Shown: piece by piece, positions 1-18,234 of the stretch | Numbering within the stretch: position 1 is the first letter of the stretch | Layout: each line of letters starts with the position of its first letter | From: Gammaproteobacteria bacterium | GTDB lineage: Bacteria > Pseudomonadota > Gammaproteobacteria > Francisellales > CACEW01 | DNA: 28,154 bases | Assembly: GCA_048594525.1 (NCBI GenBank) | Contig: JBMDXV010000078.1 | Coordinates: 1-28,154 of the forward strand | Reading direction: 5' to 3' | The notes under the pieces: generated by a model | Told to the model about the DNA's origin: nothing | Database searches by the model: none | What the model saw: the letters and a program-made list of their open reading frames with translations, nothing else | Position numbers and translations under genes: made by a program

Positions 1-111
1 CCTGCTGAAATATTGATTGAGTTGACGCTGTCATCAATTGAGACGGGGTATAGCGTTGAATCTGAAATTTTAGTGAGGCTTGCGCATTCATTGGCCAAGG
101 CAAGGGTTTAA
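1..111 (+). CDS. 3' end of an unidentified CDS truncated by the window edge (PAEILIELTLSS...LAKARV*)
   Basis: Frame 1 is open from base 1 to TAA at 109-111. It is co-directional with the next genes. The product cannot be recognised from 36 residues. Confidence 0.5.
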   Translation, partial: PAEILIELTLSSIETGYSVESEILVRLAHSLAKARV

Positions 112-138
112 GTTTTTTAGCAACATGAGGGAGTAAAA

Positions 139-735
139 ATGATCTATACCTATTATCGAAATGAAGAGGGAGCCGTTCAAGAGATGGCTCGCTATACCAA
201 AGCGACCTTTGGAGAATCAAAAGTCACGGCGGTTGAAAACGAGGCTTCTCTTAAGGCGCACTGGAAAGATACGCGACTACCTGAAATTTTTAAGCGGTTC
301 AAATCAGGTGATGCACTAATTGTGTTGGATGCGCCTAACCTTGCGTGTTCGATGACGCAGATATTAGAAATTTTAAAGATCACTGTGGCGCAAGGGGTGG
401 CGATTCATTTTATTAGATATCAGACAGTGATGAAGAATGACACGCCTGAAATAGAGTCCAAGGCCTTATTAAACTTGATCAGTAGAATCCAAAATCACTA
501 TACCGTTAAACGAACCCATGAAGCGATTGGAAGGAGGAAGGCATCGGGCTTGCCATTGGGTAGGCCGAAGGGGCGCAAGAATAAGGCATTAAAGCTTGAT
601 CCTTTTAAAGCGGATATTGAAAAGTACATGACTATTGGGGTGAGTAAGGCATCGATTGCGAAATTAGTTGCGTGTCATCCGCAGACTTTGCATGACTGGT
701 TGGGCCGAAGAGAGCAGCAGGATGTGAGGGTTTAA
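139..735 (+). CDS. Serine recombinase (resolvase/invertase) family protein with degenerate catalytic motifs and intact C-terminal HTH
   Basis: SD-like GAGGGAG precedes the ATG. The resolvase layout is recognisable (GDALIV...GVAIHFI...KRTHEA...GLPLGRPKG...SKASIAKLVACHPQTL), but YxRVS reads YYRNE and DRLxR reads PNLAC. Confidence 0.8.
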   Translation: MIYTYYRNEEGAVQEMARYTKATFGESKVTAVENEASLKAHWKDTRLPEIFKRFKSGDALIVLDAPNLACSMTQILEILKITVAQGVAIHFIRYQTVMKNDTPEIESKALLNLISRIQNHYTVKRTHEAIGRRKASGLPLGRPKGRKNKALKLDPFKADIEKYMTIGVSKASIAKLVACHPQTLHDWLGRREQQDVRV

Positions 736-738
736 AGT

Positions 739-1248
739 ATGAAACTGTCTTTCGTTCAGGGGGCTATTTTAGGGGGAGCGCTGATACAGAGTGCTTATGC
801 TCTGCAAGAAGATCCCACACCTTATCCTCTTTACAGCGGGACAGCTTTAAGTTGCAGCGCCCTTGGGCCGGATGGAACAGACTGCTGCGCCTATCAGGGC
901 TGGAATTCGATGGATGAATGTAATGCGCAAGAAAAGGAGCTTGCTGAAGCAAGAGCCGTTGGGGCGGCAGAATATATTGGAAACCTTTGTGTTGAAAAAG
1001 AGGGGGCATGTGTTTCTTCAAGTTCTGTCTACTGTGTGTTTAAAGAAGGGGATCAGTGGGATAAAGGAGCGTATCTCATACAAACTACCGTCCGAAAATA
1101 TCTGAATATGGGTTTTGGTACTGCAAGCCAGCCCGATTGTAAGGGGTTAAGCAAGCATCAACTGACTGTTGGTCTGCTTATGTTTATAAGCAGTGGTATG
1201 ACAAGAGATCAGGCGGAGCAGGCTTGGGCAGAGGAAAGCAATTCATAA
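739..1248 (+). CDS. Secreted Cys-rich protein homologous to the TraN C-terminal domain (mini-TraN)
   Basis: Signal peptide ends in A-Y-A. All 8 Cys and the motifs CC..GW, EKEL..AR..G, YC.F and FG....PDC.G align by eye with the C-terminus of the TraN at 4095-6053. Confidence 0.8.
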   Translation: MKLSFVQGAILGGALIQSAYALQEDPTPYPLYSGTALSCSALGPDGTDCCAYQGWNSMDECNAQEKELAEARAVGAAEYIGNLCVEKEGACVSSSSVYCVFKEGDQWDKGAYLIQTTVRKYLNMGFGTASQPDCKGLSKHQLTVGLLMFISSGMTRDQAEQAWAEESNS

Positions 1249-1268
1249 GGATCAATAAAGGGGGAGAT

Positions 1269-1562
1269 ATGTCACAGCACTTTTTTAATACAGAGTATCA
1301 AGGTCGGCCCGTAGAAGTCGTGATGGGCTGGGATAGGCCCTTGCAGGAATACTTTTTATGGATCAGGTGGCTGGACCGTAAAGAGTACGATGGGGAGAGG
1401 TTTTTATGGCACAACCTAGATCACGATGTGAAGGAGCGTCATCTGTTTTATACCTTTGTGCGGGTGCTGGAGTCATTTGGGATTGAAGTGCCAAAGGAGA
1501 TGCTTGATGGAGTACTCAGAGATGGACAAGAAAATGCGGGCAGTAAAAAGGTTATTTATTAG
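1269..1562 (+). CDS. Small hypothetical protein (MGWDRPLQ.YF motif)
   Basis: GGGGAG SD at 1261-1266 supports the ATG at 1269 rather than the ORF-track start at 1224. The sequence is protein-like; no function is recognised. Confidence 0.7.
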   Translation: MSQHFFNTEYQGRPVEVVMGWDRPLQEYFLWIRWLDRKEYDGERFLWHNLDHDVKERHLFYTFVRVLESFGIEVPKEMLDGVLRDGQENAGSKKVIY

Positions 1563-1571
1563 GCTTTATTA

Positions 1572-1907
1572 TTAATGGTGGAACCAAAAGAGGAGCATGT
1601 TAATGACAACGACGAGGCAAAAGCCAAAGACAATCTTAGTGAGCATATCAAGCTTGCCATCTGAGCGGGCAATGTCTTCTTTGAACTCAGCCCGCAGCAG
1701 CGCATTGTCAGCGCGAACAGAAGCAATCTCCTCTTTAAGCTTAACTTCAACGAGCAGCAGATCTTCTTTTGTAGCAAGACGTTCAATACTGCTGTTGGTG
1801 GCATCCTTAATCATTTCAACCAGAGTTTCAGCCTGGTCGTCTTTAATTCCAGAGCGCTTGAGGGCATTGAATGACTTTAAGGTATCAAACTGGTGTAGGG
1901 CTTGCAT
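1572..1907 (-). CDS. CCDC90/DUF1640-like coiled-coil protein with C-terminal membrane anchor
   Basis: FDTL...L...G....QAE head motif, LATKEDL neck motif, heptad coiled coil and a C-terminal hydrophobic helix (IVFGFCLVVVINMLLFWF). Confidence 0.8.
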   Translation of the reverse strand: MQALHQFDTLKSFNALKRSGIKDDQAETLVEMIKDATNSSIERLATKEDLLLVEVKLKEEIASVRADNALLRAEFKEDIARSDGKLDMLTKIVFGFCLVVVINMLLFWFHH

Positions 1908-1997
1908 GGCTCAACTCAAAAAAGTGACTTATATGAATTATAACAAAATTCTGATCAAAACACTAAACATAAAAGTCGAGTTTAGAGGAGAATCAGT
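1908..1997. promoter_or_regulatory. AT-rich divergent intergenic region, expected to carry promoters for traU and the CCDC90-like gene
   Basis: The flanking genes diverge and there is a GAGGAG SD before traU. Individual -10/-35 boxes are not assigned. Confidence 0.45.
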
Positions 1998-2993
1998 ATG
2001 CGTCTGTTAAAGCCCCTAGCCGCCTTACTGCTCAGCTTGGACATCGTCTCTCTCCATGCCGCAGGCTCGACCTGCCAGGGCAACTTTGTTGATCCCATTA
2101 GTGACATCTGCTGGGACTGCATGTTTCCGGTGTCGATCGGGGGACTAACCGTTATCCCAGGGGCAGATCACAGCGATAGCACGCCGAGTTCACCGATTTG
2201 TGTGTGTAAGACAGATACCTTGCCGCGCGTTGGGATTACTTTTAGCTATTGGGAACCTTTTGCGCTTGAAGATGTGACGACCACGCCGATGTGCATGGTG
2301 AACTTAGGCGGGATTTCCCTGCCGATTCCGGGCTTATCGAATGATATGGGAGGCGAAGGGAATGCGCTCAATAATTCCTCAGAAGACCCGAACCCTTTCT
2401 TCTGGGTACACTGGTACAAATATCCGCTCTTGTACTGGCTTAACATTATTACGGATGTGGGCTGTATGGATACCGGGAACTTTGACATTGCGTATTTAAC
2501 CGAACTTGATCCCACCTGGAACAATGATTTACTGGGCTTTGTTTTGAATCCTGAAGCCATTTTATTTGGCAATCCCATTGCCCAGGCTTCCTGTGTTGCG
2601 GATGCAGCGGCAGCGATGGTGAAGCATCCCATTGATGCGATGTTTTGGTGCATGGGGGCGCAGGGCAGTGCGTATCCCTTAACAGGCAATATTGCGGGAA
2701 CCAGTTCCACAGTGAGCGGAACAGTCCTGGAAGGGGAGCGCATGAATTATAAGCTCCACCGGGAGGGCTTGCTCTGGGACACCTATGCAAACAATCTGTG
2801 TCAGCCCTTGCCTACGCCTATTTTGCCGAAGTCTCGTTACAGTTATCAGATGGTGAATACGACGCCGGATGCGAGTAGCTGTTATCCCTATGGGGACTCC
2901 AGCATCTTTTGGGAGTCGGGTCACGATAATCCAGCGGAACATGGGAACTTTGGATATTTGGTCTGGCGTGAAAGAGATTGTTGTTTTATGTAG
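1998..2993 (+). CDS. traU: Conjugal transfer pilus assembly protein TraU
   Basis: Signal peptide, CQGNFVDPISDICWDCMFPVSIG, YWEP, FFWVHWYKYP, ELDPTW and terminal W.E.DCC motifs typical of TraU. Confidence 0.93.
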   Translation: MRLLKPLAALLLSLDIVSLHAAGSTCQGNFVDPISDICWDCMFPVSIGGLTVIPGADHSDSTPSSPICVCKTDTLPRVGITFSYWEPFALEDVTTTPMCMVNLGGISLPIPGLSNDMGGEGNALNNSSEDPNPFFWVHWYKYPLLYWLNIITDVGCMDTGNFDIAYLTELDPTWNNDLLGFVLNPEAILFGNPIAQASCVADAAAAMVKHPIDAMFWCMGAQGSAYPLTGNIAGTSSTVSGTVLEGERMNYKLHREGLLWDTYANNLCQPLPTPILPKSRYSYQMVNTTPDASSCYPYGDSSIFWESGHDNPAEHGNFGYLVWRERDCCFM

Positions 2994-3012
2994 TTTTTTG
3001 CAGGAGAAGAGC

Positions 3013-4098
3013 GTGAATATACATCAGAAATTAGGTCTGGAAGGCTTAGAAAAGAAAAGACACCTAGAAGCCTTTCCTTCTCATATAGTGCGAGCTATGA
3101 GGATGCATAAAAACACTATTAGCCCACCAGAGAGTGAAGCATACGTCTCCTCGCGGCTGAAAGCAAGACAGTCAACGCATGGGCTTTTATGGAGCAGGTC
3201 TATCTTAGCTCATATATTAGGGACTGGTCTGGCAGGCTCAGAAAAAAAAGAAATAGGCCGGATCTTTTTTTTCCACATAGTGCAAACCACAATAAGGATA
3301 AAAGAAAACACTATTAGCCCACCAGAGGGTAAACCATACGCCCTCTCGCGATTGAAAGCAAATCGGTCAGGGTGGGGATGCGGCAAGGTTCTTTTAGGCT
3401 GTGCATTAGGCTTGGCTAGCCTCGGAATAGCCAAAGGAGCAACCCCTATTCCCGACAGCACGCTCCAAGCCATGGTTCAGGGCGCCCAGGACAATGAAGC
3501 ACACTTTAAAGCGAGCCAAGGCTACCAAGATATCGTGCAAGCTTCCAAAGTGCAAGCGTCGACATTAAAACCTTATGTTTCTTTAGGAAAGACCCCGCCT
3601 CCTGCTTCCTATCAGTCTGTGGTGAACACACTGGGTTTAAATACACAGGCTAATAATGGGGCGAGCAATGGCCCCACTAATCCCAAAGTCGCAACAGGTG
3701 CAATTGAATTTGTCTCTTTATCGATGCCGGTTGCCTCTTTACGGCAGATTTTAACGGATGCAGCGCGGTATAACATTCCGGTCGTGATTCGGGGCCTACT
3801 CCAGAACAATTGGAAACTTACGACCTCTGTAATCACCTCCATTCTACAACCTTCGGGAATGCCACCTATCCAAGGCAGCTTTGAAATTGACCCCGTGTGG
3901 TTCCGAACCTTTGGGATTAGTGAAGCACCTGCCTTGGTAGTGGTTGACCCCAACAATGCCTGCACAACACCGACCTGTACCCCATCCTTTGATGTGGTGT
4001 ATGGCAATATCTCCATTCAAAACGCGCTGGAACTCATACGGAATAAAGGCACCGTGGGGCAGAGCCTTGCGGCAGAATACCTGGGAGGCCAATCATGA
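3013..4098 (+). CDS. trbC: Type-F pilin assembly protein TrbC (start uncertain: GTG 3013 with a long N-terminal extension, or ATG 3378 with a +1 frameshift)
   Basis: C-terminal FVSLSMP..SLRQI..DA.RY.IPVVIRGL...IDPVWFRTFGISEAPALV...FDVVYGNISI..ALE is the TrbC signature. It lies between traU and traN. AGGAG SD at 3002-3006 precedes an in-frame GTG at 3013. Confidence 0.85.
   Translation: MNIHQKLGLEGLEKKRHLEAFPSHIVRAMRMHKNTISPPESEAYVSSRLKARQSTHGLLWSRSILAHILGTGLAGSEKKEIGRIFFFHIVQTTIRIKENTISPPEGKPYALSRLKANRSGWGCGKVLLGCALGLASLGIAKGATPIPDSTLQAMVQGAQDNEAHFKASQGYQDIVQASKVQASTLKPYVSLGKTPPPASYQSVVNTLGLNTQANNGASNGPTNPKVATGAIEFVSLSMPVASLRQILTDAARYNIPVVIRGLLQNNWKLTTSVITSILQPSGMPPIQGSFEIDPVWFRTFGISEAPALVVVDPNNACTTPTCTPSFDVVYGNISIQNALELIRNKGTVGQSLAAEYLGGQS
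3034..3361 (+). repeat. Imperfect tandem direct repeat, unit ~192-195 bp
   Basis: AAAACACTATTAGCCCACCAGAG is identical at 3110-3132 and 3305-3327. 3110-3166 vs 3305-3361 match 49/57. GGTCTGG.AGGCT.AGAAAA recurs at 3034 and 3226. Confidence 0.9.
3241..3273. repeat. Perfect 11-bp inverted repeat with 11-nt loop (GAAAAAAAAGA...TCTTTTTTTTC)
   Basis: Read directly from the sequence; it lies inside the second repeat unit. Confidence 0.8.
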
Positions 4099-6053
4099 AG
4101 GCCCTTTATCTTGCACTTCTTCCCTTCTTACTGCCTACTTTGAGCTTTGCTGATGTCGCATCAGACTGGTCAAGCGATGTGGCTTTCGCTCAGGGTGCAG
4201 AGGGCGCTGCGGCGGGGAATAGTAGCGCACAGATCAACCAGAGCGAAAGCATCCCGGGCTTTAGCAATAACCCCAGTGAAGAATCTTACTACAATAATCC
4301 GAATGGCATTCCCACAGCAGCCGATGTTGCGGCCACGACTGATCCCAATGCACAAAACATGGTAGGTCAATTTAATAGTGGAAATGATCTCCCGGTTAAT
4401 AGCAATTCACCCATGGTACAGACAGGGAATACCATTCAACAAAATATCAGCGGAATTATCAGCGGCACCTATCCTGGCTGTACGCAGCAGCAGTCTTGTC
4501 CCGGAGGATACCAAGAACACACTTGCGAAACCTCTCGATCGCAGCAGTTGAACTGCACCAATACCTTGAATGTCACCGTGAATTATCAGCCCTACCCTTT
4601 TGATTGTAACCACCTGGTTGCGGATAACAGCAATGTCGCATATTACACGGAAGTACCCGGGCCAGATGGGAATGGCAACTGCGTTACCGGGTTTACTCAA
4701 GTCTATATTAATGTAGGCCCCTCTTCAAAGCCTTTTGGAGAAAGTGGCAGCATGCAGGCGACGCTGCCCCCGAACGTTTCGGGAACGCTCTTTATGACCT
4801 TGCGGGGATTAGATTACAACGGAGACTTTAAGCCGCAATATGATCACTTGAGCCTTGCTGTGAATGGAAATGGGCTTCCCAGTTCAAGCATTGTGAACCC
4901 TAAATTCGCGAATGCGGATGTGCTCTGGGGGACAACGACGAGTGGCTTTAAGACACCGAACACAGGAGCCTTGGTCAACGTCAGCTACAGCTATAATCTG
5001 AGTGCTACCGGAGATACCGCGCAGCATGGCTACTATTTTAATCCGATCAACGGCATCAAGCCTGCGACGATGTACATTATATATCCCTATACGGCCTTTA
5101 ATATTCCGTCAGTCAGTACCGCCTGGGTGAATTCCTGTGGGACTATTCCTTCGATGTGCAACATGACAAGCCAAACCTGCACCGATAATTCAGGGACAAA
5201 GACCATTAATGGCGACCCGGTGACCGAGCCCTGCTGGCAGTACAGCCAGGTGTATCAATGTAATGGCCCGTCTATTCCCGCACAGGATAGCTGCGCGCCG
5301 TATCAAAATACTTGTAATCCTATCAGCAGCACCTGTGATCCTGACTCGGAAGTAGATGGCTATTGTTTAGTACAGAACGTGACTTATTCCTGTCCGAATG
5401 GCCCCTGTTCGTCAAACCTCGTGTGCGGGATGGATGAGTTTTGCGTGAGCGGAGACTGCTACACGCCGACCCCGAGTCAAAGTACCGACTTTGGCAAAGA
5501 CGATTCTGAGATGGCGGCAGTGACGGGCGCCATGCAGTCTGCGATCAACAGTGGGAGTGAGACGGCCTTTACAGGAGACGCACAAAGTTGTCGGGAGTCG
5601 ATTTTAGGCTACATCAACTGCTGTTCAGATTCAGGCTGGGGCATCAACATTGGCTTATCCAATTGCAGTGCCGCTGAAAAGGAATTAGGTCAGGCACGGG
5701 AACAGGGTAGAGCCATCCAGGTGGGAGGGTCTTATTGTTCATCAAGTACCCTTGGGCTTTGTACTGAACACAGCGAAGGGTATTGCATCTTCCCGGATCT
5801 GATTTCGTATGACGTTCAGGTGCAGGGTAGGCTGGGGCAACTCGGGATTAGCTTTGGGCAGAATTCGAGTCCGGACTGTTCGGGAATCAGTATCCCTAAC
5901 TTACAAAAGATTAATTTTAGTTTGATTGATTTTAGTAATGTGCAGCAAGAGATTGAGTCGCAAGCGACCTTCCCCGAATCGGGCACAACGCAGACGAATG
6001 TTGAAAAAGAGATCCAGAATATGGAACAGAATTTTAATGGAGGAGGACAATGA
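4095..6053 (+). CDS. traN: Mating-pair stabilisation protein TraN
   Basis: Signal peptide, many Cys, C-terminal NCC...C...EKELGQAR..G...YC...C....YCIF...FG...PDC.G...INFSLIDFS. ATGA overlap with trbC. Confidence 0.92.
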   Translation: MKALYLALLPFLLPTLSFADVASDWSSDVAFAQGAEGAAAGNSSAQINQSESIPGFSNNPSEESYYNNPNGIPTAADVAATTDPNAQNMVGQFNSGNDLPVNSNSPMVQTGNTIQQNISGIISGTYPGCTQQQSCPGGYQEHTCETSRSQQLNCTNTLNVTVNYQPYPFDCNHLVADNSNVAYYTEVPGPDGNGNCVTGFTQVYINVGPSSKPFGESGSMQATLPPNVSGTLFMTLRGLDYNGDFKPQYDHLSLAVNGNGLPSSSIVNPKFANADVLWGTTTSGFKTPNTGALVNVSYSYNLSATGDTAQHGYYFNPINGIKPATMYIIYPYTAFNIPSVSTAWVNSCGTIPSMCNMTSQTCTDNSGTKTINGDPVTEPCWQYSQVYQCNGPSIPAQDSCAPYQNTCNPISSTCDPDSEVDGYCLVQNVTYSCPNGPCSSNLVCGMDEFCVSGDCYTPTPSQSTDFGKDDSEMAAVTGAMQSAINSGSETAFTGDAQSCRESILGYINCCSDSGWGINIGLSNCSAAEKELGQAREQGRAIQVGGSYCSSSTLGLCTEHSEGYCIFPDLISYDVQVQGRLGQLGISFGQNSSPDCSGISIPNLQKINFSLIDFSNVQQEIESQATFPESGTTQTNVEKEIQNMEQNFNGGGQ

Positions 6054-6808
6054 AGGCGGTCGCTCTCTGTTTTATCCTGTTGCCGGTGCTTGGTCTTGCG
6101 GACTTTTACACGAGCCCTGCAGAAGGGTGGCTGAACTATAACTATGCGGCGCCCGTAAAGCCCCAGGCACAAAAAAAGCCAGAAACGCCCACGGGAGAGA
6201 TGAATGCGTTCCACGTCTATTTTGAAAATGTTAAAAACCAGGCGCTAATGCATCCTGGAAATGAGCAAGATGTAGAAAACTATATGGCACTCCAAAATTA
6301 TGTTCAGAACCGTTCAGTGCAGTTTCAACAGACCTGGCAAAAGGTCTTACTGGATGACCCTCAGTATGACTATGAACTCTTGCACCCCACAGACAGCTTA
6401 GCCAACCAGGTGGAGCACCAGGCAACCCAAGCCGAGGAAGTGGCTGCGGTCAAACACTTTGCAGCTAGCTATGGCTTAGTCTTCTTTTACTACAGTACGG
6501 ATGCCTATGCTAAAACCATGGCCCCAAGCTTACAGAGCTTTGCCGATCAGTATGGCATTGCGTTACTCGGGATTTCGATGGATGGCAACCTATTATCCGC
6601 GATTAGCAACAACCAAACTGATAACAAGGGCCAGGCTTACCGTTTAGGCGTGCAGGATTATCCTGCTTTGTTTCTAGTGAACCCCCAAACCGGCGCATCC
6701 ATTCCGGTGGCCTATGGGTTTTTAGCACAAGATCAATTATTGCAGCGGTTTTATGATTTAGAAACGAATTTTAGTGGTCAAGATTTAATGACAAGTACGG
6801 GGGTCTGA
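6050..6808 (+). CDS. traF: Pilus assembly protein TraF (thioredoxin-like fold without CxxC)
   Basis: EGWLNYN, A...P...NV..Y...Q, YGLVFFY...ISMDG...PALFLVNP.T...P.AYG. CxxC is replaced by DAYA. GGAGGA SD and ATGA overlap. Confidence 0.9.
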   Translation: MKAVALCFILLPVLGLADFYTSPAEGWLNYNYAAPVKPQAQKKPETPTGEMNAFHVYFENVKNQALMHPGNEQDVENYMALQNYVQNRSVQFQQTWQKVLLDDPQYDYELLHPTDSLANQVEHQATQAEEVAAVKHFAASYGLVFFYYSTDAYAKTMAPSLQSFADQYGIALLGISMDGNLLSAISNNQTDNKGQAYRLGVQDYPALFLVNPQTGASIPVAYGFLAQDQLLQRFYDLETNFSGQDLMTSTGV

Positions 6809-6809
6809 G

Positions 6810-7214
6810 ATGATGAAGCGCATAGTGGGTTTAGGGTTATTCTTTTTTTTAAGTACTGCATTTGGGGACTGGAGTCACTATGCGATGGTGCTCTTTTATG
6901 AGTCCACCTGTCCGCACTGTCAGCGCTTTACGCCGATTGTTGCGGACGTTGCAGAGCATGAACAGATCAAGCTCTATGCCTTCACGATGAATGGAGGCAC
7001 CTTGCCTGCGGTAGCAGCAGAAACTGCGCCCGCACAAGACGCGATTATCAATAACTTTTATCAAAGTGCACCGAGTCATGAAGTGCCTGCGGTCTTTTTA
7101 GTGAACGTCGATACGATGGCTTTTTTGCCTGTGTCGATAGGAGAAGAGCCGGAGGATCAGTTTGTGATGCAACTGCAACAGGCTTATCAGGCTTTAGAAG
7201 GAGGTGCAGCATGA
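6810..7214 (+). CDS. trbB: Type-F thiol-disulfide isomerase TrbB
   Basis: Signal peptide, LFYESTCPHCQRF active site, FTMNG and VPAVFLVNV.T; sits between traF and traH. Confidence 0.88.
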   Translation: MMKRIVGLGLFFFLSTAFGDWSHYAMVLFYESTCPHCQRFTPIVADVAEHEQIKLYAFTMNGGTLPAVAAETAPAQDAIINNFYQSAPSHEVPAVFLVNVDTMAFLPVSIGEEPEDQFVMQLQQAYQALEGGAA

Positions 7215-8572
7215 AGAAGTTAATTCTCCTCCTCTCTTTGCCAGGCGCAGTTTTTGCGAATGATGGGGTACAGAATGATTTAGATAATTTTTTTAATCAG
7301 TCGGGCTTTGTCTCCAATGTGACGACACCGACGGCTTACCAAGGTCAGGAAGCGGGATACTATTCGGCGGGGTCTCTTTACCTTCAATCGCCTTCGCGGT
7401 ATGTGCAGCCCATTGGGATTACGCTCCCTTCCTTGAATACAGGCTGCGGGGGGATTGATCTATTTAATGGGGGGATGTCCTTTATTAACAGTAAGGAACT
7501 CACCGCCTTTGCGCAGAATGTGATGTCCAATGCAGCGGGTTATGCTCTGCATTTGGCTTTAGCGACGTATGCGCCTGAGATTGATAGTGCCTTAAAATAC
7601 ATTCAGGATGTGGCCCAGCAAATTAACCAGTTTGGCATGTCGTCCTGCCAAGCTGCGCAAGCTTTGGTGGGAGGCATTTGGGATATGACCGGGCAGAACA
7701 TGACCCAGGCGTGCCAGGATATGGGTCAAAACCAGAATGCCTTTGGAAACTGGGTATCGGCAAAAGAAGGCTGCACGACAGGGAATCAAAGTAGCTCCAT
7801 CTTCCAGAATGGCCAAAGCCAGGGGCAGGGCAAGGATCAACTCCTCCCCAACACCAACATTGCCTGGAATGCGCTCGGGAACTATGGCATTACGAGTGAA
7901 AATGAGGAGCTTGCTGAATTCTTAATGACGGTATCGGGGACGATTGTCACAGATTCCAAGGGCAATCCCCACTTTTATCCACCACAGTTTAATAATGGCA
8001 ATATCATTGATGCCCTTATTAATGGCGGGACTGCTGATATTTATACCTGTAGTGAGAGTTCATCTTGCTTGAATATTACAAGCACCACGATGAACATTGG
8101 GACACAGAATGGGCTGGTTTCGCTCGCGCGGAATAATGTGAGTACCATTGCGCGGGATTTAGCAAGTGATACACCTTTAAATTCAAGCTTACAAAGCTTT
8201 TTACAAAATGTGAACTTCCCGATTTTAACCATCTTAGAATCAACGGCCATGACGGGTCAGAACAGCGCCTCCATTACAGAAGCCCTATCAGAATATTTGG
8301 CTTATTACATTTTAGATGAATACCTGCAATGGGCCTTGAATACCGTGGACTCTGCCTCATCGAGTCTTAATATCCCGGCCCCCGTGTTATCGGAGTTTAC
8401 GAACAATATCAGCCAGGGCCAGGCTTATATTGAAGCGGATGTCTCGAATAAAGCCCAGCAGTACTTAACCCAGTTGCAGGGTCTGATGGCTAACAACCAG
8501 ATGATGCAGCAGGCGATCGGGAAATCGAGTACCGCCCAGGTTGAAAATGTTGAATTCCAGAATGGAGAATAA
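7211..8572 (+). CDS. traH: Conjugal transfer protein TraH
   Basis: NVT.P.AYQGQEAGYYSAGSL, GCGGIDLFNGGMSFIN and SSCQAAQALVGG motifs; GGAGG SD. Confidence 0.93.
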   Translation: MKKLILLLSLPGAVFANDGVQNDLDNFFNQSGFVSNVTTPTAYQGQEAGYYSAGSLYLQSPSRYVQPIGITLPSLNTGCGGIDLFNGGMSFINSKELTAFAQNVMSNAAGYALHLALATYAPEIDSALKYIQDVAQQINQFGMSSCQAAQALVGGIWDMTGQNMTQACQDMGQNQNAFGNWVSAKEGCTTGNQSSSIFQNGQSQGQGKDQLLPNTNIAWNALGNYGITSENEELAEFLMTVSGTIVTDSKGNPHFYPPQFNNGNIIDALINGGTADIYTCSESSSCLNITSTTMNIGTQNGLVSLARNNVSTIARDLASDTPLNSSLQSFLQNVNFPILTILESTAMTGQNSASITEALSEYLAYYILDEYLQWALNTVDSASSSLNIPAPVLSEFTNNISQGQAYIEADVSNKAQQYLTQLQGLMANNQMMQQAIGKSSTAQVENVEFQNGE

Positions 8573-8575
8573 AGA

Positions 8576-11443
8576 ATGACCTTGCCTGTTTATGTGATAA
8601 CAAGTGGAGGGGTTGCGGAATACGTCTTTAATGCCGTAGCAGCCTATACACAAAGCCATGACTTCACTATCATTGTGGGGATTGCCGCGCTCTTAGGCTT
8701 TGGAGCCGCCGCCCTTCGCTATCATCGAGAGCGGGATATTGGGATTGCGGGGCATTGGTTCTTATTGTTCTTTTTAACGACCAATATTTTAGTCTCTCCC
8801 GCCTTATCGCAAGACATTGAGATTATTGATACCACGAATCCCATGCAGACCTATAATGTTGCGCATGTTCCGCTGGGCCTCGCGGTTCCCGCCTCGATGA
8901 TCTCCGAAGTCATGGTGGGGGTGGCGCAGGGCTTGGATACCGTCTTCCACCTGCCGGATGATATGGGCTACAGTTCAACGGGCATGCTCTATGGCAATAA
9001 GATCATGGAGACGAGCTTAAATCCCTCTCCCCTCCCGAAAGCCCTTCAAGCGGAAGTGGATGACTTTTACCGGCAGTGTATTTTACCGGACATCGTCATT
9101 AACAAAAAATATACCTATGAAGATTTAGCAACGTCTGTCAATCTCTTCAACTTTTTACAAAGTCAGCAAATGTCTCCCTTACGCGGCATTTACATCAATG
9201 GAAACTTTGAGACCTGTGCGCAAGCGGTGGGTCTCATTCAGACAAGCTTCCAGGGGTTTACCTCGACGCAACTCGCGGCCATGCAAAGCAGAATAGCCGG
9301 CCCCCTCGGGAACATTAAGTCTCCCCCCGGGCAATTTGCGAATGATTTACAGACGGCTTATTCGTATTACTTGAATGGCTTATCCCAAGATGCCGCAACG
9401 ACCGTTATGCAAAACTCCATGATCAACAGCATCCAGCAAGCAGGGGTGGATAACGCGGCTTATTACAACAATTCGGCAGCACAACTCATCAACTATGCAG
9501 AGACAACAGGAGAACAAGGCTTTTTAATGCAGACCCTCACGATCGCGAAAGTCATTGCGAACTGGCTTCCCTTTATTCAAACTGCGATTTTTTTAGCAGG
9601 GGTGGCGCTCTTTCCGATTGCGGTGTTGTTTACGATTGATCCCACGAGTTCGCATCGGTTCTTTAAGAACTATTTGGTCTTTTTTGTGTGGATCTGTTCC
9701 TGGCCAGTGATCTTTGTGGCGGTGAACTTTATCTCGAATGTGGCCTTAAGCTTTACAGCAAGTACGTACACCGCGGGGCTTTCGGGGCCAGGGATTACCT
9801 TGAGCAATATTAACGGGGTGCAGTTTGATTTTACGGTGATGTATGCGATATCGAGTCTTCTCACCATTGCGGCGGTGACAGGAGGGCTTCCTGGAGTGAT
9901 GAAGATGTCGAACATGGGACAAAGCCTCGCGAGCGATTTAATGGGCTTTGCGCGGTATTCGACAGGGGCGGCGGCATCAGCTTTGGGGGATGGGAATCTC
10001 AGCCTCGGCAATATGAGTGCGTTTAATGGGAGCGCGAATAAAACGGATCTTAATTCGAGCTACACCTATGGAATGAGTGCGGTGACGAACCCCAGTACGG
10101 GAACGGTGGATAAAGATTGGACATCCGGTGGGCAAAGTCACTACATTGGGACGGATGCGAGTGGCTTTGTCTTAGGTGGGAACTATGCGGCCAACTTTGC
10201 TCAGGAATCAACGAGCCAGTTACAGCAGATGGCGAGCCATAGTAAACAGGCTGCGCAGAGTATGTCTGAGCAGGCGACGCAAGGCATCAGTTCTGAGTTC
10301 CAGCACCTGGATCAGACCATGAGTCAAATTACGAATGACCAAAGTTATCAAGAGAACTTTAGTCATGACCAGTCTGGTCAGTTTATGGAGGCTTACAATA
10401 CGTTGCAATCCAATGTGCAGAGCTATGGGCAGGAGCATGGGTGGACGAATCAAGAGATTGGAAGTGTAGCTAGAAGTCTAACTTTTGGCATAGATGGCAG
10501 TGTAGGTGCAACAGGTAGTATTGGAGCAGGAAGTATTAAGGGCAGTGCTTCAATTTCTGGCTCTGCAAATTTAAATACGACAGCCAAAAAAGAAGATATT
10601 AATCAATTGGAGTCTAGTTACCGAAGTTCACTTACTGATACTCAAACTAAAGAATTACAAAATCAACAGCAGAATATTAATTCTTACATGGAGCAGGTTC
10701 AGTCAATGCAAAGTCAAGGCAAGCAATTGTCATCAGGAGACCAGATATTAGCAAGTATTGCTAATAGCAAGAGTGAGTTACAGCAAGCCAGCGCTGAGTA
10801 TAGCCAATCCGAGCAATACGAAAATATGGCTTCAAGTATTCAAAGCAACAGTGTTTCGTATAACCAGAATCTCATGCCTACTTTTGAGAGTTGGCTTAAA
10901 TCGAATGCCTATACTCAAAGCGGTCAAATTAAAGATCCAGGTTATCACGAAGCCTATGATGCTTTAATCAATAAAGAAACAGGTCGTCCAGTCACTGCGA
11001 TGGGAGCACAATCTTTAGCATGGGCAGAAAACCGTTTTGCAAGTTCAAATTTAAGTGGAACTGGGCTTGTTGCTCAAGCACAAATTGCCGCGACGGCTTC
11101 AAATGTTGCAAGTCAGGCGAATAGTTGGATGGGTGCTGTTAAATCACAGGGGACGTCAGCGGTTAATAGCAGCGCTGCTTCAGGAGTAGCTTCTGCACAA
11201 GCTGATTTTGTACAACAAGGCGGTCAATCCATGAGTAGTGCTAATTTCAATAGTAATAAAGCGAACGTTGAATCTAGTGTTAATGCTCAGCAAGGAACAG
11301 TGAATCAACAAGGTGCTGCCTTAGATCAAGAGAAAAGCAGCGATATGGAAAATTTTGATAAAAACACAGGAGCAGTCAATTCTAATGAAAATAGGGGATT
11401 ATGGGCAACAGAATGGAAAAATGATGATAAACCTGTTAATTGA
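8576..11443 (+). CDS. traG: Mating-pair stabilisation / entry-exclusion target TraG
   Basis: N-terminal TM segments, VAHVPLGLA.PAS, QCI..D and CSWPVIFVAVN motifs, then a long polar C-terminal periplasmic region; follows traH. Confidence 0.92.
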   Translation: MTLPVYVITSGGVAEYVFNAVAAYTQSHDFTIIVGIAALLGFGAAALRYHRERDIGIAGHWFLLFFLTTNILVSPALSQDIEIIDTTNPMQTYNVAHVPLGLAVPASMISEVMVGVAQGLDTVFHLPDDMGYSSTGMLYGNKIMETSLNPSPLPKALQAEVDDFYRQCILPDIVINKKYTYEDLATSVNLFNFLQSQQMSPLRGIYINGNFETCAQAVGLIQTSFQGFTSTQLAAMQSRIAGPLGNIKSPPGQFANDLQTAYSYYLNGLSQDAATTVMQNSMINSIQQAGVDNAAYYNNSAAQLINYAETTGEQGFLMQTLTIAKVIANWLPFIQTAIFLAGVALFPIAVLFTIDPTSSHRFFKNYLVFFVWICSWPVIFVAVNFISNVALSFTASTYTAGLSGPGITLSNINGVQFDFTVMYAISSLLTIAAVTGGLPGVMKMSNMGQSLASDLMGFARYSTGAAASALGDGNLSLGNMSAFNGSANKTDLNSSYTYGMSAVTNPSTGTVDKDWTSGGQSHYIGTDASGFVLGGNYAANFAQESTSQLQQMASHSKQAAQSMSEQATQGISSEFQHLDQTMSQITNDQSYQENFSHDQSGQFMEAYNTLQSNVQSYGQEHGWTNQEIGSVARSLTFGIDGSVGATGSIGAGSIKGSASISGSANLNTTAKKEDINQLESSYRSSLTDTQTKELQNQQQNINSYMEQVQSMQSQGKQLSSGDQILASIANSKSELQQASAEYSQSEQYENMASSIQSNSVSYNQNLMPTFESWLKSNAYTQSGQIKDPGYHEAYDALINKETGRPVTAMGAQSLAWAENRFASSNLSGTGLVAQAQIAATASNVASQANSWMGAVKSQGTSAVNSSAASGVASAQADFVQQGGQSMSSANFNSNKANVESSVNAQQGTVNQQGAALDQEKSSDMENFDKNTGAVNSNENRGLWATEWKNDDKPVN

Positions 11444-11449
11444 AAAGGA

Positions 11450-11893
11450 CTAGTGTCGATGATTATATTTATTACCTCTCAACCCACAATATGCCGAATT
11501 ATCAAAAAAAGAAACGCTTTCTCTTTTTTTCGGGAAAAGTTCATTACTATCACAAGAACTTGTAGTAGGTTTTTTTCCAGACATCCAATATGCAATAAAA
11601 AATATCAAGGAAATTACCAAAATGCTACCTAAGCTTCCTAAAAGATACATGCCGATCTCTTCGAGTAGACTTGAATTGATAGAAAGACTTCCTATAGTAG
11701 TAGAGAGGATCGCCCCAACAGCAAAGATAGAGAAGCCGCCTGTAAAAATAGTCGAAACTAATATTCGTTGCCATTTTGGCGGTTTTTTGAATTCTTCTTT
11801 AGCAGCCGTTAAGTCTGCTTTAGGATTGGCCGCTAAACCTAAATACGATAAATCATCAGTTTTCGCCTTCTTACCGAATTTAAAGCAGGCCAT
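11450..11893 (-). CDS. Two-TM membrane protein convergent with traG; candidate entry-exclusion protein
   Basis: GGAGGAAGG SD just upstream of the ATG at 11893 (the ORF track starts at 11959). It has two hydrophobic helices, and its stop lies 6 bp from the traG stop. Confidence 0.65.
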   Translation of the reverse strand: MACFKFGKKAKTDDLSYLGLAANPKADLTAAKEEFKKPPKWQRILVSTIFTGGFSIFAVGAILSTTIGSLSINSSLLEEIGMYLLGSLGSILVISLIFFIAYWMSGKKPTTSSCDSNELFPKKRESVSFFDNSAYCGLRGNKYNHRH

Positions 11894-12028
11894 TACCTTC
11901 CTCCAAAATTTAGACACTATTAAAAGTATAGCACAAATCTGTAAAAAGGCGAGAGTCAAAACAATGCTTTTAATTCAGTGGGTTAACAAACGTATTCAAG
12001 TTGAAAGCACTACATCCTCACTTACCGC

Positions 12029-12292
12029 CTATGTCCGATATACCCACCAGTGCATGGCTAAAAACACAAAAGGAATAGCCAGAATTCTGAGCACATCGTG
12101 TAAAAGCTGCATCACAGCCATCGCGAACAAATTTACGTCTGCTGCAAGGATGCTGCTGATAACAAACCGATCGATCAGCGCCAAAACCATAAACGAAAAT
12201 GCACAGCCGAATAAAAAGTGTATCAAGCTTTTTCTTTTTTGGATTGCGCTTTTTTGTTCCATCCAGTTTTTAATCTTCATTTCCAACTCCAT
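12029..12292 (-). CDS. Small hydrophobic membrane protein, unknown function
   Basis: 87-aa ORF with a basic N-terminus and two hydrophobic segments; co-directional with 11450-11893. Confidence 0.55.
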   Translation of the reverse strand: MELEMKIKNWMEQKSAIQKRKSLIHFLFGCAFSFMVLALIDRFVISSILAADVNLFAMAVMQLLHDVLRILAIPFVFLAMHWWVYRT

Positions 12293-12388
12293 TGTGAAGT
12301 GGAAATATAGCTTATCACAAAAGTATGTGTATAAATTGACTTGATTGATAAGATATTGATTTTATGTATGAACCAACCAGGAGTAATG

Positions 12389-13201
12389 ATGCAAAAAATA
12401 AGTAAATTGTTAAAAGTAGGCGCCTTAGCGAGTGCGATGGGGGTTTTATCAGGTCTTGCCGGATGCGCCAGTCCACAAGCTGTCCCTACGGCCCCACCTC
12501 AGCCCTTCAGCCCCGCACAGGAGCAGGCCATCTCTGCCATTGTAGCCAAAACCCTGATTAACAATCCCTCGATCTTGCTACAGACTGTCCAAGCTTTAAA
12601 AGCCCAGCAAGCCAATACAGCGAATCAGCAAGCCCTGAGCGCCATCAGTAAAAACGCAAGCAATCTTTTAAACGATGAAGCCTCACCCTTCATTGGCCCA
12701 GAGAATGCTTCTGTGGTGGTCATCGAGTTCTTTGACTATCAGTGTGTCTATTGTCATCAGGTCTATCCTGAAGTGAAGTCTTTAATCGCGGCTTATCCCA
12801 ATGTGAAGTTTATCTTTAAAGAGTTCCCCATTTTTGGCGCCTCTTCAGAGTATGCAGCAAAAATGTCTATTGTCGCCTTTGAACTCAACAAGTTTGAATC
12901 CTTCCACAATGCCCTCTTTGATACAGGCTTAATGGAAGGCAAGCTGACACCCGACGCAGTAGACAAAGTCGCAGCACAGGTGGGGATAAACCTCAGTCAA
13001 GCGAAAACCATGATGCAAGGGCTATCCGTATCAGGAGAGTTGTCACGAAACCAATACCTCGCCCAGCAATTAGGTATAGGAGGGACCCCTGATTTTGTCG
13101 TGATGCCGAACTCCACTACGGTGAATCCCGGTAAGGTGACTTTTTTACCCGGGGCTGTTCCCGCACAAGCCTTAACTCAGGCCATCATTCAAGCACAATA
13201 G
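12389..13201 (+). CDS. DsbA-family (Com1/DsbA2-like) thiol-disulfide oxidoreductase lipoprotein
   Basis: AGGAG SD at 12379-12383, lipobox [13 protein letters not shown] active site, FKEFPIFG and cis-Pro GTP motif, with an N-terminal dimerisation-type helix (L..NP.IL.Q..Q.L). Confidence 0.88.
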
Positions 13202-13211
13202 GAGAACTATC

Positions 13212-13646
13212 ATGTCAAAAGGAACTGTAAACAAAGTGATTCTGGTCGGACGCTTGGGGGCTGATCCTGAAATGCGGTATACCCCAAACGGAGTGGGGGT
13301 GGCCCATTTAAGGCTTGCCACGAATGAAACATTCAAAGATAAAACAGGTCAATCTCAAGATCAGACAGAGTGGCACCGTGTGGTGCTTTTTGGAAAGACG
13401 GCGGAACTTGCGGGTCAATATCTCAAGAAAGGCGCCTCTCTTTTCATTGAAGGGCGAATTCGGACAAACAAATGGAAAGACCAAAGTGGACAGGATCGCT
13501 ACAGCACTGAAATTGTGGCGAATGAAATGCAGTTTATGGGGGGAAATAGAGAAGCAGAAAACAAAGCGAACTCCTCTGAAGCTTCCCTGCCTGTTCAGCA
13601 CGCTGAGCCTGATGATCAGTTTAAAGGGGAAGACATTCCTTTTTAG
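13212..13646 (+). CDS. ssb: Single-stranded DNA-binding protein
   Basis: [25 protein letters not shown]...IEG.I.T.KW and acidic C-terminal DIPF tail. Confidence 0.97.
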
Positions 13647-13679
13647 TCACAAAATTGAACAAACCGATCAGGAGAGACC

Positions 13680-14414
13680 ATGACAAAAGAAAAACAAAAG
13701 GACAAGATTCGGAAGCTTTTAGAGCTATCGATGTCCGATAACGAAAACGAAGCGGCCATTGCCTTAAGGCAGGCGATGAGCTTGATGAACAAACATAATT
13801 TAAGCCAAGAGGAAGTTTATGGCCAGGCGATGATTGAGCATCGTATCACCACTCCTTATTACCGAATTCCAGGCTGGTACATTAAGCTTGCAAATTACAT
13901 GGCCACAGTGTCAGGTTGTTTTTTAGTATATGTAAATGGGCGATCTGATTTTGATATGAAAGCAGAAATGCGTTTTGCGGGCCGAGAGCGGGATGTAAAG
14001 AATTCGCTCTACCTTTTAACCTTTTTGCAAAGAACGCTGGAATCTCGTGTTAAGGAATACCGGATGGTGATCGAAAAAGAAGGGCTAGAGCCTGTTTCCA
14101 TGTGGGTGAAGTCTTACCGGTATGGCTTTATCACCAAAGTGTACCAACGGATTAAAGAGAGCAAGAAACAGTTTTTCACTGCCGAAAAAGGGACAGGGAT
14201 AGTCTGTGTTGATTCAGAGGCACGCATTCAAGAGGCAAAAGACTTTTACATCAAAACACACCAAACAAAAATAAGAACGACGGAGTCGCAAAGCCAATAC
14301 ATTGGATCAGCTTTACGGGCAGGGCAAAGTGATGCGGATGAATTGCAACTCAATAATGCGCTGAGCGGCCAGGATGAGGTGCTAGGGATCAGTCATTTAA
14401 AAGGAAGATCATGA
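13680..14414 (+). CDS. DUF2786 domain-containing protein
   Basis: N-terminal KIRKLL.LS.S.NENEA..A...A..LM.KHNL motif and C-terminal G..D...L.L. Confidence 0.8.
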   Translation: MTKEKQKDKIRKLLELSMSDNENEAAIALRQAMSLMNKHNLSQEEVYGQAMIEHRITTPYYRIPGWYIKLANYMATVSGCFLVYVNGRSDFDMKAEMRFAGRERDVKNSLYLLTFLQRTLESRVKEYRMVIEKEGLEPVSMWVKSYRYGFITKVYQRIKESKKQFFTAEKGTGIVCVDSEARIQEAKDFYIKTHQTKIRTTESQSQYIGSALRAGQSDADELQLNNALSGQDEVLGISHLKGRS

Positions 14415-14971
14415 ACGCATATATCGCTTTAAAATCCCTCTTTGAGGTGAGCACCCGTAAAAAGCAAGTGAGCCTCATGGGGCGATTTAAGTTTTATCTC
14501 TGGTGCACCTTTTTAGTCAAAAAGACTTCACACCAAAGAAGAATAAAACAAGCCTCGCGCCTACTCAGGCTATTTAATCAGCAGGATTTCAGGCATCAGC
14601 CCACCTCCTTTTTTGCCTATCTTCGTAAAATTGACGCGTTTACTTTTGAAGAACTGCTTCTCTTGGCCTTTAAGGCCAGGGGCTGCAAAGTGATTCATAA
14701 CGAGGCATACACGGGAGACGGGGGCATTGATGGCATGGTGATCTTCCCGGATAAGACCCGGTGGGCCATCCAGGCTAAGCGATATTCCACGTATATAAAG
14801 CTTGAGCATGTGAAAGCTTTAAGTCAGGTGGTCAAAGCACAAAGGCTCCAAGGTGGGATCTTTATCCATACAGGGCAGACAGGAGGGCGAGTTTATCCCT
14901 ACTTGGGCAAAGAGATTCTTTTAATCAGTGGGCAGAGGCTGCATCAGTTTGTAACCTCTGCTTTAGGATGA
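14411..14971 (+). CDS. Mrr-like PD-(D/E)xK restriction endonuclease
   Basis: YLRKID.F.FEELL...F, TGDGGIDG and AIQAKRY match the Mrr_cat signature; ATGA overlap with DUF2786. Confidence 0.88.
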   Translation: MNAYIALKSLFEVSTRKKQVSLMGRFKFYLWCTFLVKKTSHQRRIKQASRLLRLFNQQDFRHQPTSFFAYLRKIDAFTFEELLLLAFKARGCKVIHNEAYTGDGGIDGMVIFPDKTRWAIQAKRYSTYIKLEHVKALSQVVKAQRLQGGIFIHTGQTGGRVYPYLGKEILLISGQRLHQFVTSALG

Positions 14972-15028
14972 GGGAGGGCTGGTATCAAGAGCTGGGTGTG
15001 CTCAGAAATGGTTAATATCTGTCTTTTT

Positions 15029-15271
15029 TTAAGATGAAGCATGCCTGATGTGCAAATCAAACAAAGGATGGCCAGTAGGGTAGAAGATAAAGCCTTGTAG
15101 AACGATAACAAAGAGACTGAGGAGCAATATGCAAATCACAATGGCAGGGAAGTCCTGGTAAAGACTGGCGGAAATTTGCACTATGGTTTTAATGAAGAAG
15201 AATGACCAGCCGACTAAGAAAGCGGTGAGTATGAGCAATAGAAAAATATGGTGGTGAGAGATGGGTTGCAT
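15029..15271 (-). CDS. Small two-TM membrane protein (paralogue A), probably leaderless
   Basis: 80 aa with two hydrophobic helices; aligns with 15436-15690. Confidence 0.65.
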   Translation of the reverse strand: MQPISHHHIFLLLILTAFLVGWSFFFIKTIVQISASLYQDFPAIVICILLLSLFVIVLQGFIFYPTGHPLFDLHIRHASS

Positions 15272-15277
15272 AGTAGC

Positions 15278-15286
15278 AGTATAGCA
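15278..15286 (-). promoter_or_regulatory. Extended -10 element TGcTATACT 6 nt upstream of the ATG at 15271
   Basis: The minus strand reads TG-C-TATACT-GCTACT-ATG, with no SD and an AT-rich upstream tract. Confidence 0.55.
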
Positions 15287-15435
15287 ATAAACGAAAAAAG
15301 TAAAAAAATATTATTTGTAAAATTTAATAATTTTAATATGAGGTGAAGCGTGGATTAAGTAATCAATTTGGAATGAAAAACTAAGCAAGGGAGCCTCTTT
15401 TGCATATTCTTTCAATCAGTGAGGGGGGGGTTACA

Positions 15436-15690
15436 TCAGCTTGTGGCCCATGTGCTGGGATGAAGCAACATAGGCAAGGTAGAGGGATCAGTAGAAAGAT
15501 GAAGGAAAGTAGAGTAAATAATAATCAAAATAGCAGTGAGCGAACCCAGGAATTTATAGATGGAAGAGGGTCTCCTTTGGTCTCTGGAAAAAAACTCACA
15601 GGCTGCTTTGATAAAAAGGATAAGGATGCCAAGCGTCATAGCCGACATCAGCAGCATAAAAAAGAGGTGCGAATAGGTTATTTCTTTCAT
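15436..15690 (-). CDS. Small two-TM membrane protein (paralogue B)
   Basis: 84 aa. MKEITYSHLFFMLLMSA...FIK aligns with MQPISHHHIFLLLILTA...FIK. Confidence 0.62.
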   Translation of the reverse strand: MKEITYSHLFFMLLMSAMTLGILILFIKAACEFFSRDQRRPSSIYKFLGSLTAILIIIYSTFLHLSTDPSTLPMLLHPSTWATS

Positions 15691-15771
15691 CAGGGGAGCT
15701 TACCAGATTTGTACAGGAAAAATAAGCACAAGCTTGGTCAAGCAAAAAAGCAGCGCGTTTTCTTAGCTTGC

Positions 15772-15835
15772 AGCAATAGAAAAATGAGGAGGTAGGAAAT
15801 GGATTAGCGTAAAGCGGCGGAATTAGCAGTATAGC
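15772..15835 (-). pseudogene. Degenerate third copy of the 5' end and -10 box of the small membrane-protein gene
   Basis: AGCAATAGAAAAAT is identical at 15234-15247 and 15772-15785, and TAGCAGTATAGC at 15274-15285 and 15824-15835. The start codon is lost and the frame is interrupted. Confidence 0.5.
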
Positions 15836-15990
15836 CCATAAAAACTGGCTTATCAGAGATTAATTTTTATCCTCTCTTAAATGAGAAGAGGAGGGGTCAT
15901 TTCAAAAAAAGGGGTTTGGTGCGATGTCGATTTAGAGGGCTGGGTTAGTGGAGTGGGGCAGGAAACTATTCATAAAGAGGAGAGTATCAA

Positions 15991-16044
15991 ATGAAAGAGG
16001 AGGAAGCAAAAGTGGCACAGGCATTCAATGGAGGACAAAAATGA
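15991..16044 (+). CDS. 17-aa upstream ORF coupled to traD (MKEEEAKVAQAFNGGQK)
   Basis: Strong AGAGGAG SD ~7 nt upstream; its TGA overlaps the traD ATG (ATGA at 16041-16044). Confidence 0.4.
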   Translation: MKEEEAKVAQAFNGGQK

Positions 16045-18221: not shown

Positions 18222-18234
18222 GGAGGGCACCAGC

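Follow-up and report, generated by a model that had tools for sequence, protein, structure and literature searches.

The window analysed here, a stretch of 28,154 nucleotides of gammaproteobacterial DNA, carries at positions 739-1248 on the plus strand an intact reading frame whose 169-aa product (169 codons plus a stop) consists of a leader followed by the eight-cysteine C-terminal module of the conjugation protein TraN and, the leader apart, has nothing N-terminal to that module. By its sequence this protein, which we call mini-TraN, fits best among the stand-alone TraN-C-module proteins, a small family in which it would be a divergent member that branches early. We read it overall as an exported, stand-alone TraN C-module that acts in the donor mating apparatus, a reading that we would accept about as readily as doubt; its identity part is very probably right, and the part that concerns mechanism is put forward tentatively, with doubt having the upper hand.

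The gene opens with an ATG placed 4 nt beyond the stop codon (733-735) of a resolvase/invertase-like gene (139-735, +), and its GAGGG Shine-Dalgarno (726-730, +), 8 nt 5' of the ATG, lies within the 3' end of that upstream gene, a layout that suggests co-transcription or translational coupling of the two. Residues 1-21 of the product (MKLSFVQGAILGGALIQSAYA, encoded at 739-801, +) contain K2, a hydrophobic core and an A-x-A sequence (A-Y-A) before L22 and are read as a predicted Sec leader; this reading of the sequence agrees with the low-confidence, unstructured N-terminus of the AF2 model described below. The TraN C-terminal module occupies 811-1167 (+; aa 25-143), with a beta, alpha, beta-hairpin, alpha arrangement and eight invariant cysteines, and is followed at 1168-1245 (+; aa 144-169) by a divergent tail that is helical in the model and stands in place of the IDLTKINF/IDFS-like motif.

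A first-pass annotation of this DNA had proposed that, after its leader, the protein aligns with the C-terminus of the TraN encoded by the same element (~5565-5910), and this was borne out: BLASTP aligned residues 32-167 of mini-TraN with residues 492-629 of the element's own TraN (nt ~5568-5980) at 33% identity (145 columns; E 9e-13), and the alignment includes all of the motif pairs that had been quoted (e.g. LYSGTALSC/AFTGDAQSC, DCCAYQGW/NCCSDSGW and YCVF/YCIF). All eight cysteines pair with those of TraN, as had been claimed, and in our alignments they (C39, C49, C50, C61, C84, C91, C99 and C134) are invariant across TraN C-domains and the short family. The relationship to the TraN family also emerged from profile searches, in which residues 25-138 of mini-TraN matched positions 128-240 of the 240 in Pfam PF06986 (F_T4SS_TraN) with an E of 1.1e-18 and 68 bits (cut-off 23). 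Only the last ~115 positions of the NCBIfam TraN models were matched, far under their whole-protein cut-offs (TIGR02750: 66 bits, cut-off 422). The match between mini-TraN and the TraN C-module is far beyond what chance would give, and on these comparisons the observation of a stand-alone C-module is confirmed.

Structure prediction gave the same picture. An AF2 model of mini-TraN, built on a 13-sequence family alignment, reached a mean pLDDT of 71.7, with values of 84-90 across residues 60-140 and below 50 for residues 1-29, and its elements run in the order strand, helix, beta-hairpin, helix and two C-terminal helices; residues 495-582 of the model of the window's TraN share this secondary-structure order. 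When mini-TraN, modelled alone, was compared by Foldseek with the Swiss-Prot AlphaFold set, the sole match was residues 447-600 of F-plasmid TraN (P24082), with a probability of 1.0, so that the TraN fold anticipated in the first-pass annotation was indeed recovered. Against the AFDB clusters, the matches, again at a probability of 1.0, were proteins of 197-988 aa, mostly auto-named TraN and otherwise with a C-terminal region like that of TraN, all of them matched via this C-terminal or near-C-terminal module. A feature search of the ESM Atlas returned generic TraN clusters only (0.81), and the PDB holds no solved structure with a TraN C-module that could be found by sequence or by fold.

The resemblance to canonical TraN is confined to one part of that protein. 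Mini-TraN and F TraN (P24082) have in common the C-terminal module, with its eight aligned cysteines and its order of secondary structure, and both are encoded in an F-type tra cluster and exported, export of mini-TraN being predicted from its leader. F-like TraNs, however, are about 600-1000 aa long and hold ~20-22 cysteines, as compared with 169 aa and eight cysteines, and mini-TraN is without their N-terminal helical region, their Cys-rich beta region (profile positions 1-127) and their receptor-binding tip. It also lies outside the trbC-traN-traF slot, which is filled by a genuine full-length TraN of 652 aa (4095-6053, +; C-module at about 5565-5910). TraN has six "conserved cysteine regions" (PMC10732058), and motifs matching all six can be read in mini-TraN. 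Judged by domain coverage, curated cut-offs, number of cysteines, tip and gene position, each of which it fails, mini-TraN is not itself a TraN. The first-pass annotation had described the protein as lacking the N-terminal region, the tip and the terminal IDFS motif, which is right for the copy in the window, where the tail sequence TVGLLMFISS aligns against INFSLIDFS of TraN; typical members of the family, however, keep an IDFS-like motif. A frameshift behind the odd tail was considered and rejected, the IDFS-like motif being encoded in no other frame.

An exhaustive phmmer search with mini-TraN against 1.84 billion representatives produced 535 matches, the top ones being short proteins of 178-200 aa that are 36-49% identical to it; those at 42-49% identity rank above every full-length TraN. 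Each of the short family members has its own leader, in one case with a lipobox (LAGC). A profile search contributed five further members of 177-200 aa, and the closest relatives of the window's mini-TraN (P0001) are ~11 other short leader-bearing proteins of 164-200 aa (named members P0002, P0003, P0007, P0009 and P0155-P0159). When 153 TraN C-modules were placed in a tree, six short leader-bearing proteins formed one clade with an SH-aLRT of 99 and a long stem, and the window's TraN fell among TraNs from related elements. A single clade (UFBoot/SH-aLRT 100/99), with mini-TraN as its earliest branch, was likewise recovered in a more careful tree that had 11 short members, and a further tree supported the short-family clade at 98. 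Recent duplication of the C-domain of the element's own TraN is disfavoured by these trees, although AU tests do not formally reject it: placing mini-TraN with its own TraN lineage gave p 0.07 and a delta lnL of 23 under LG+F+G4, and p 0.46 with a PMSF quick tree. At the ten family-diagnostic positions, mini-TraN keeps three of the family residues and has none of the TraN-type ones.

The remaining short database matches are spread among full-length TraNs in the tree and are mostly fragments that arise from contig ends or internal-start calls. Among the candidates set aside, the one at L010 (G001) and several other short matches are contig-end or mis-started pieces of full TraNs, and at L008 (G038) a leaderless ORF of 202 aa, which a small ORF and a TraF-like gene follow directly, has the look of a traN cut short. 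That so many other short matches are fragments of this type is the one point in favour of taking mini-TraN itself for an artefact, either a broken piece of traN or a truncation introduced by gene calling. Mini-TraN, however, begins at a start codon of its own, is preceded by a Shine-Dalgarno, carries a leader and lies inside the contig, an intact 652-aa TraN is encoded 3 kb away, and relatives from several independent assemblies show the same architecture; we regard the artefact as refuted, with a negligible chance of being right. Because leaders are conserved and synteny is largely conserved among the homologues, the family, as judged from the genomes compared, is not a set of random truncations.

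The members of the family are accessory genes found in a single lineage of F-type conjugative elements, and the family is rare. Of 68 genomes from the order, 3 carry it, the window genome included, as do 0 of 399 other scored genomes sampled from the class, and it is therefore dispensable for F-type transfer in general. A tblastn search of plasmids with a family member found none among the 5000 best-scoring records, the matches listed being full-length TraNs; the best of them, in Piscirickettsia salmonis plasmids, reach 38% identity, and none covers 80% of the query. Positions 1-8000 of the window had no megablast match in the plasmid collection, and a word-index homologue search with mini-TraN alone retrieved only mini-TraN itself.

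Where the surroundings of family members could be read, the genes usually follow one another as traN, traF, trbB, traH, traG, (small gene), (traT), (unknown), (OMP-like), ScsC/DsbA-like, mini-TraN, (ssb/small), traD, traI, and the traI includes fused DUF7146 and Toprim domains. The whole arrangement, or part of it, was read at L012-L015, at L020, L021 and L022 (L020-L022 being from metagenomes), on the P0009 contigs, and in two genomes, one from the same family as the window genome (G015) and one from the same genus (G001). The gap between the ScsC/DsbA-like gene and mini-TraN is 1-30 bp, and in two loci a single base pair, and full-length TraN accompanies mini-TraN on every contig that reaches the traN region. 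A survey for short leader-bearing TraN-domain proteins beside a full traN, which the first-pass annotation had suggested, was positive, with largely conserved synteny. Two F-type elements that are more distant, though from the same order, have the arrangement traG-x-traT-traD, and neither ScsC nor mini-TraN was found between their traT and traD; in what is a small sample, ScsC and mini-TraN appear together. A variant arrangement was seen on one soil-metagenome contig, L016, which bears tandem mini-TraN genes (254-805 and 1162-1656; 183 and 164 aa) with an OMP-like gene, not ScsC, before them, a topoisomerase-like gene after them and, between the two, a small minus-strand gene homologous to window 15436-15690 (-).

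In F-like systems, the traG-traT-traD interval is the site of exclusion genes, and canonical mini-TraN genes lie in this interval, with TraT annotated 2-3 genes 5' of them. This position, together with a leader for export and the lack of any receptor-binding part, would fit a decoy or exclusion factor, which the first-pass annotation had raised as a possibility beside a TraN chaperone and an adaptor for a tip encoded elsewhere, that is, a free module that competes for the partner of the TraN C-module, or that acts in would-be recipients already bearing the element, so that mating is dampened through fertility inhibition or surface/entry exclusion. We consider this unlikely, since the gene that mini-TraN adjoins is ScsC and not TraT, since ScsC and mini-TraN are present at L022 without a recognisable TraT, and since the window copy sits outside the interval altogether.

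The proximity to ScsC raises a different alternative, in which mini-TraN is a partner or client of the oxidoreductase, the two forming a folding module where the free TraN module serves as substrate, template or chaperone for oxidising or isomerising the Cys-rich TraN, TraU and TraH. Tight coupling of the two genes in most loci and the absence of both from the two more distant elements speak for such a partnership; the 11 kb that separate them in the window, and the tandem genes of L016 that come after an OMP-like gene, speak against it. We know of no precedent for a folding module of this kind, and we hold this explanation to be very unlikely.

The copy in the window has an unusual position. 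Like the ScsC-linked members, it combines a leader with the module and belongs to an element of the same type, and the trees place it in their clade (support 98-100), with the reservation from the AU tests given above; the element is one with homologous ScsC, TraD and TraI (48-57% identity). The ScsC-linked members, however, have Thr-rich and IDLTKINF motifs and adjoin ScsC, whereas the window copy does neither and lies 5' of traU, behind the resolvase-like gene. There it forms part of a unit of three genes, resolvase-like, mini-TraN and a small protein, and is found 11 kb 5' of the window's ScsC/DsbA-like thiol-disulfide oxidoreductase (12341-13201, +); the latter, which in related elements stands directly 5' of mini-TraN, is here directly 5' of ssb, after 10 bp. 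The resolvase-like gene, at which the contig begins, matches Pfam Resolvase with an E of 4.7e-5 and NCBIfam Mpi with 79 bits (cut-off 272), and its nucleophile motif reads YYRNE, with no Ser; lacking the nucleophile, its product is predicted to be inactive. The small protein (1269-1562, +; 97 aa from an internal ATG, MSQHFFNTEY...WDRPLQ...) looks cytoplasmic and has no leader, and its homologue at L020:19631-19984, 3' of traI (blastp 37% identity, E 5e-20), makes it seem a recurring accessory gene whose position has changed. A DUF1640/CCDC90-like gene on the minus strand (1572-1907; 111 aa; Pfam E 1.2e-8) parts the mini-TraN unit from traU; the low-complexity ORF that overlaps it (1597-2010, +) is probably spurious.

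In sequence, too, the window copy is set apart. It is without the Thr-rich N-terminal motif of the family (ITTTKTTLN) and without the C-terminal motif IDLTKINF (IDFS-like) that typical members keep, it has a 5-aa insertion relative to the family, and it forms the longest terminal branch in the clade (0.9-1.5). On the loci and sequences compared, it is the most divergent member of the family and is displaced from the canonical site. The same features would be expected of a relic, that is, a gene lost from or displaced from the canonical ScsC-linked site by rearrangement, so that the frame at 739-1248 is now drifting and has lost its part in conjugation: the branch is the longest, both terminal motifs are gone, a stretch of five residues has been inserted, the site beside a resolvase-like gene without a nucleophile is non-canonical, and the neighbouring small gene is likewise displaced in comparison with L020. 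What we find at the gene itself does not look like drift, however. The ORF is whole, it has a Shine-Dalgarno and a leader, and all eight cysteines are retained among the full set of 23 family-invariant residues, signs that the copy looks maintained.

The divergence of mini-TraN can moreover be set against that of the rest of the element. Mini-TraN is 35-46% identical to the canonical group, within which identities are 48-65%, an intermediate degree of divergence that is also seen in TraN and TrbB. To the canonical group the window's ScsC shows 53-57% identity (53-65% within the group) and its TraD and TraI 48-54%, which is about as near as members of the group come to one another, whereas TraH, TraF and TraG together reach only 26-43% (50-79% within the group), with TraH at 34-37% (69-79% within) and TraG at 26-30% (50-66% within). 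Since the exported Mpf proteins (block 1998-11443) are far more diverged than ScsC, TraD and TraI (12341-24273), the element is a mosaic, and mini-TraN looks as if it has co-diverged with its own Mpf block rather than simply decayed. A divergence in line with that of other exported Mpf proteins such as TraH and TraG also counts against the relic, which we consider distinctly improbable.

A functional stand-alone module in the donor remains our preferred reading, and we infer its course as follows. Sec export would yield a mature mini-TraN of about 148 aa, whose eight cysteines would be oxidised to four disulfides by two enzymes of the element, the ScsC-like protein and a TrbB-like thioredoxin-fold protein (6810-7214, +; assigned by Pfam/NCBIfam), the second disulfide catalyst that the element encodes. 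The product, located in the periplasm or the outer membrane of the donor, would represent a second, tip-less TraN C-module that may supplement or tune the TraN-dependent assembly of the mating apparatus, with no binding of its own to a recipient receptor. It is the tip of TraN that binds outer-membrane proteins of the recipient, and the C-terminal domain folds back onto the N-terminal domain in AlphaFold models (PMC9246713); cysteines of the conserved C-terminal part of TraN are required for function (PMC7555446). A complex prediction for TraN (residues 20-652) with mini-TraN (residues 23-169) scored 0.01, a value that counts neither for nor against an interaction.

Further short forms of TraN bear on how far the C-module is a unit in itself. 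Two minimal TraNs consist of a leader and essentially the C-module alone: P0029 (L043:1051-1632; 193 aa), encoded between trbC and traF-traH-traG and thus in the traN slot, and P0128 (L044:297-971; 224 aa), encoded directly 5' of traF. Both branch among full-length TraNs and not with the ScsC-linked clade, and on the stretches seen they occupy the canonical traN slot, each as the one TraN-like protein seen there, whereas the mini-TraN of the window comes in addition to a full TraN. Since minimal TraNs of this kind fill the traN slot, the TraN C-module can stand alone. In addition, the AFDB contains short proteins of 199-253 aa, auto-annotated as "conjugal transfer protein TraN", that are essentially C-module only. 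The first-pass annotation had known of no named system of this type. As regards the name this holds, for no source among the matches found gives the stand-alone family one, and our literature searches found no paper describing it; the minimal TraNs and the auto-named short TraNs make a tip-less TraN less exotic than that annotation supposed. The literature on short or second TraNs yielded only the unrelated TraN of the Gram-positive pIP501 and a short/long TraN typing scheme, in which "short" means about 650 aa and "long" about 1000 aa.

Taken together, a separate, conserved gene for an exported product beside a full TraN and the minimal TraNs of the traN slot show that the C-module folds alone and is kept by selection. 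It would be a larger step, and one that we think distinctly unlikely to be right, to regard the TraN C-module as an autonomous unit whose tip-less copy, normally co-produced with an ScsC-type catalyst, is a new modulator of conjugation that might set mating efficiency or exclusion by competing with the C-module of TraN or by docking next to it. Were mini-TraN a mating modulator, it would be a new accessory component of F-type conjugation; if not, it would be a minor lineage-specific paralogue. In either case, a protein of about 150 aa with four predicted disulfides offers a small, tractable handle on the binding partners and the role of TraN's conserved part, and the family points to a possible dedicated link between the TraN C-module and an element-encoded oxidoreductase of the ScsC type.

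Several other features of the element were recorded along the way. The tra region is split across contigs in this assembly (G000): TraW was not found in it, and TraV, together with a TraC cut by a contig end, lies on another of its contigs (C67:4996-6986). The ORF assigned to TrbC (2869-4098) encodes 409 aa, of which residues 281-388 alone form the TrbC domain; the N-terminal extension is long and shares 125 nt with the end of traU, so that translation may in fact begin further 3'. At L022 the homologue has 237 aa. The interval between traG and ScsC (11450-12344) holds a minus-strand ORF of 169 aa that looks membrane-like and an ORF of 240 aa without a Pfam match, for which no homologue was found among the TraT, OMP-like or unknown genes of the canonical interval. 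Finally, TraI (18196-24273) is a fusion protein of 2025 aa, in which a TrwC relaxase and helicase domains are followed by a C-terminal DUF7146 and a Toprim domain (primase-like), an architecture common to the related elements.
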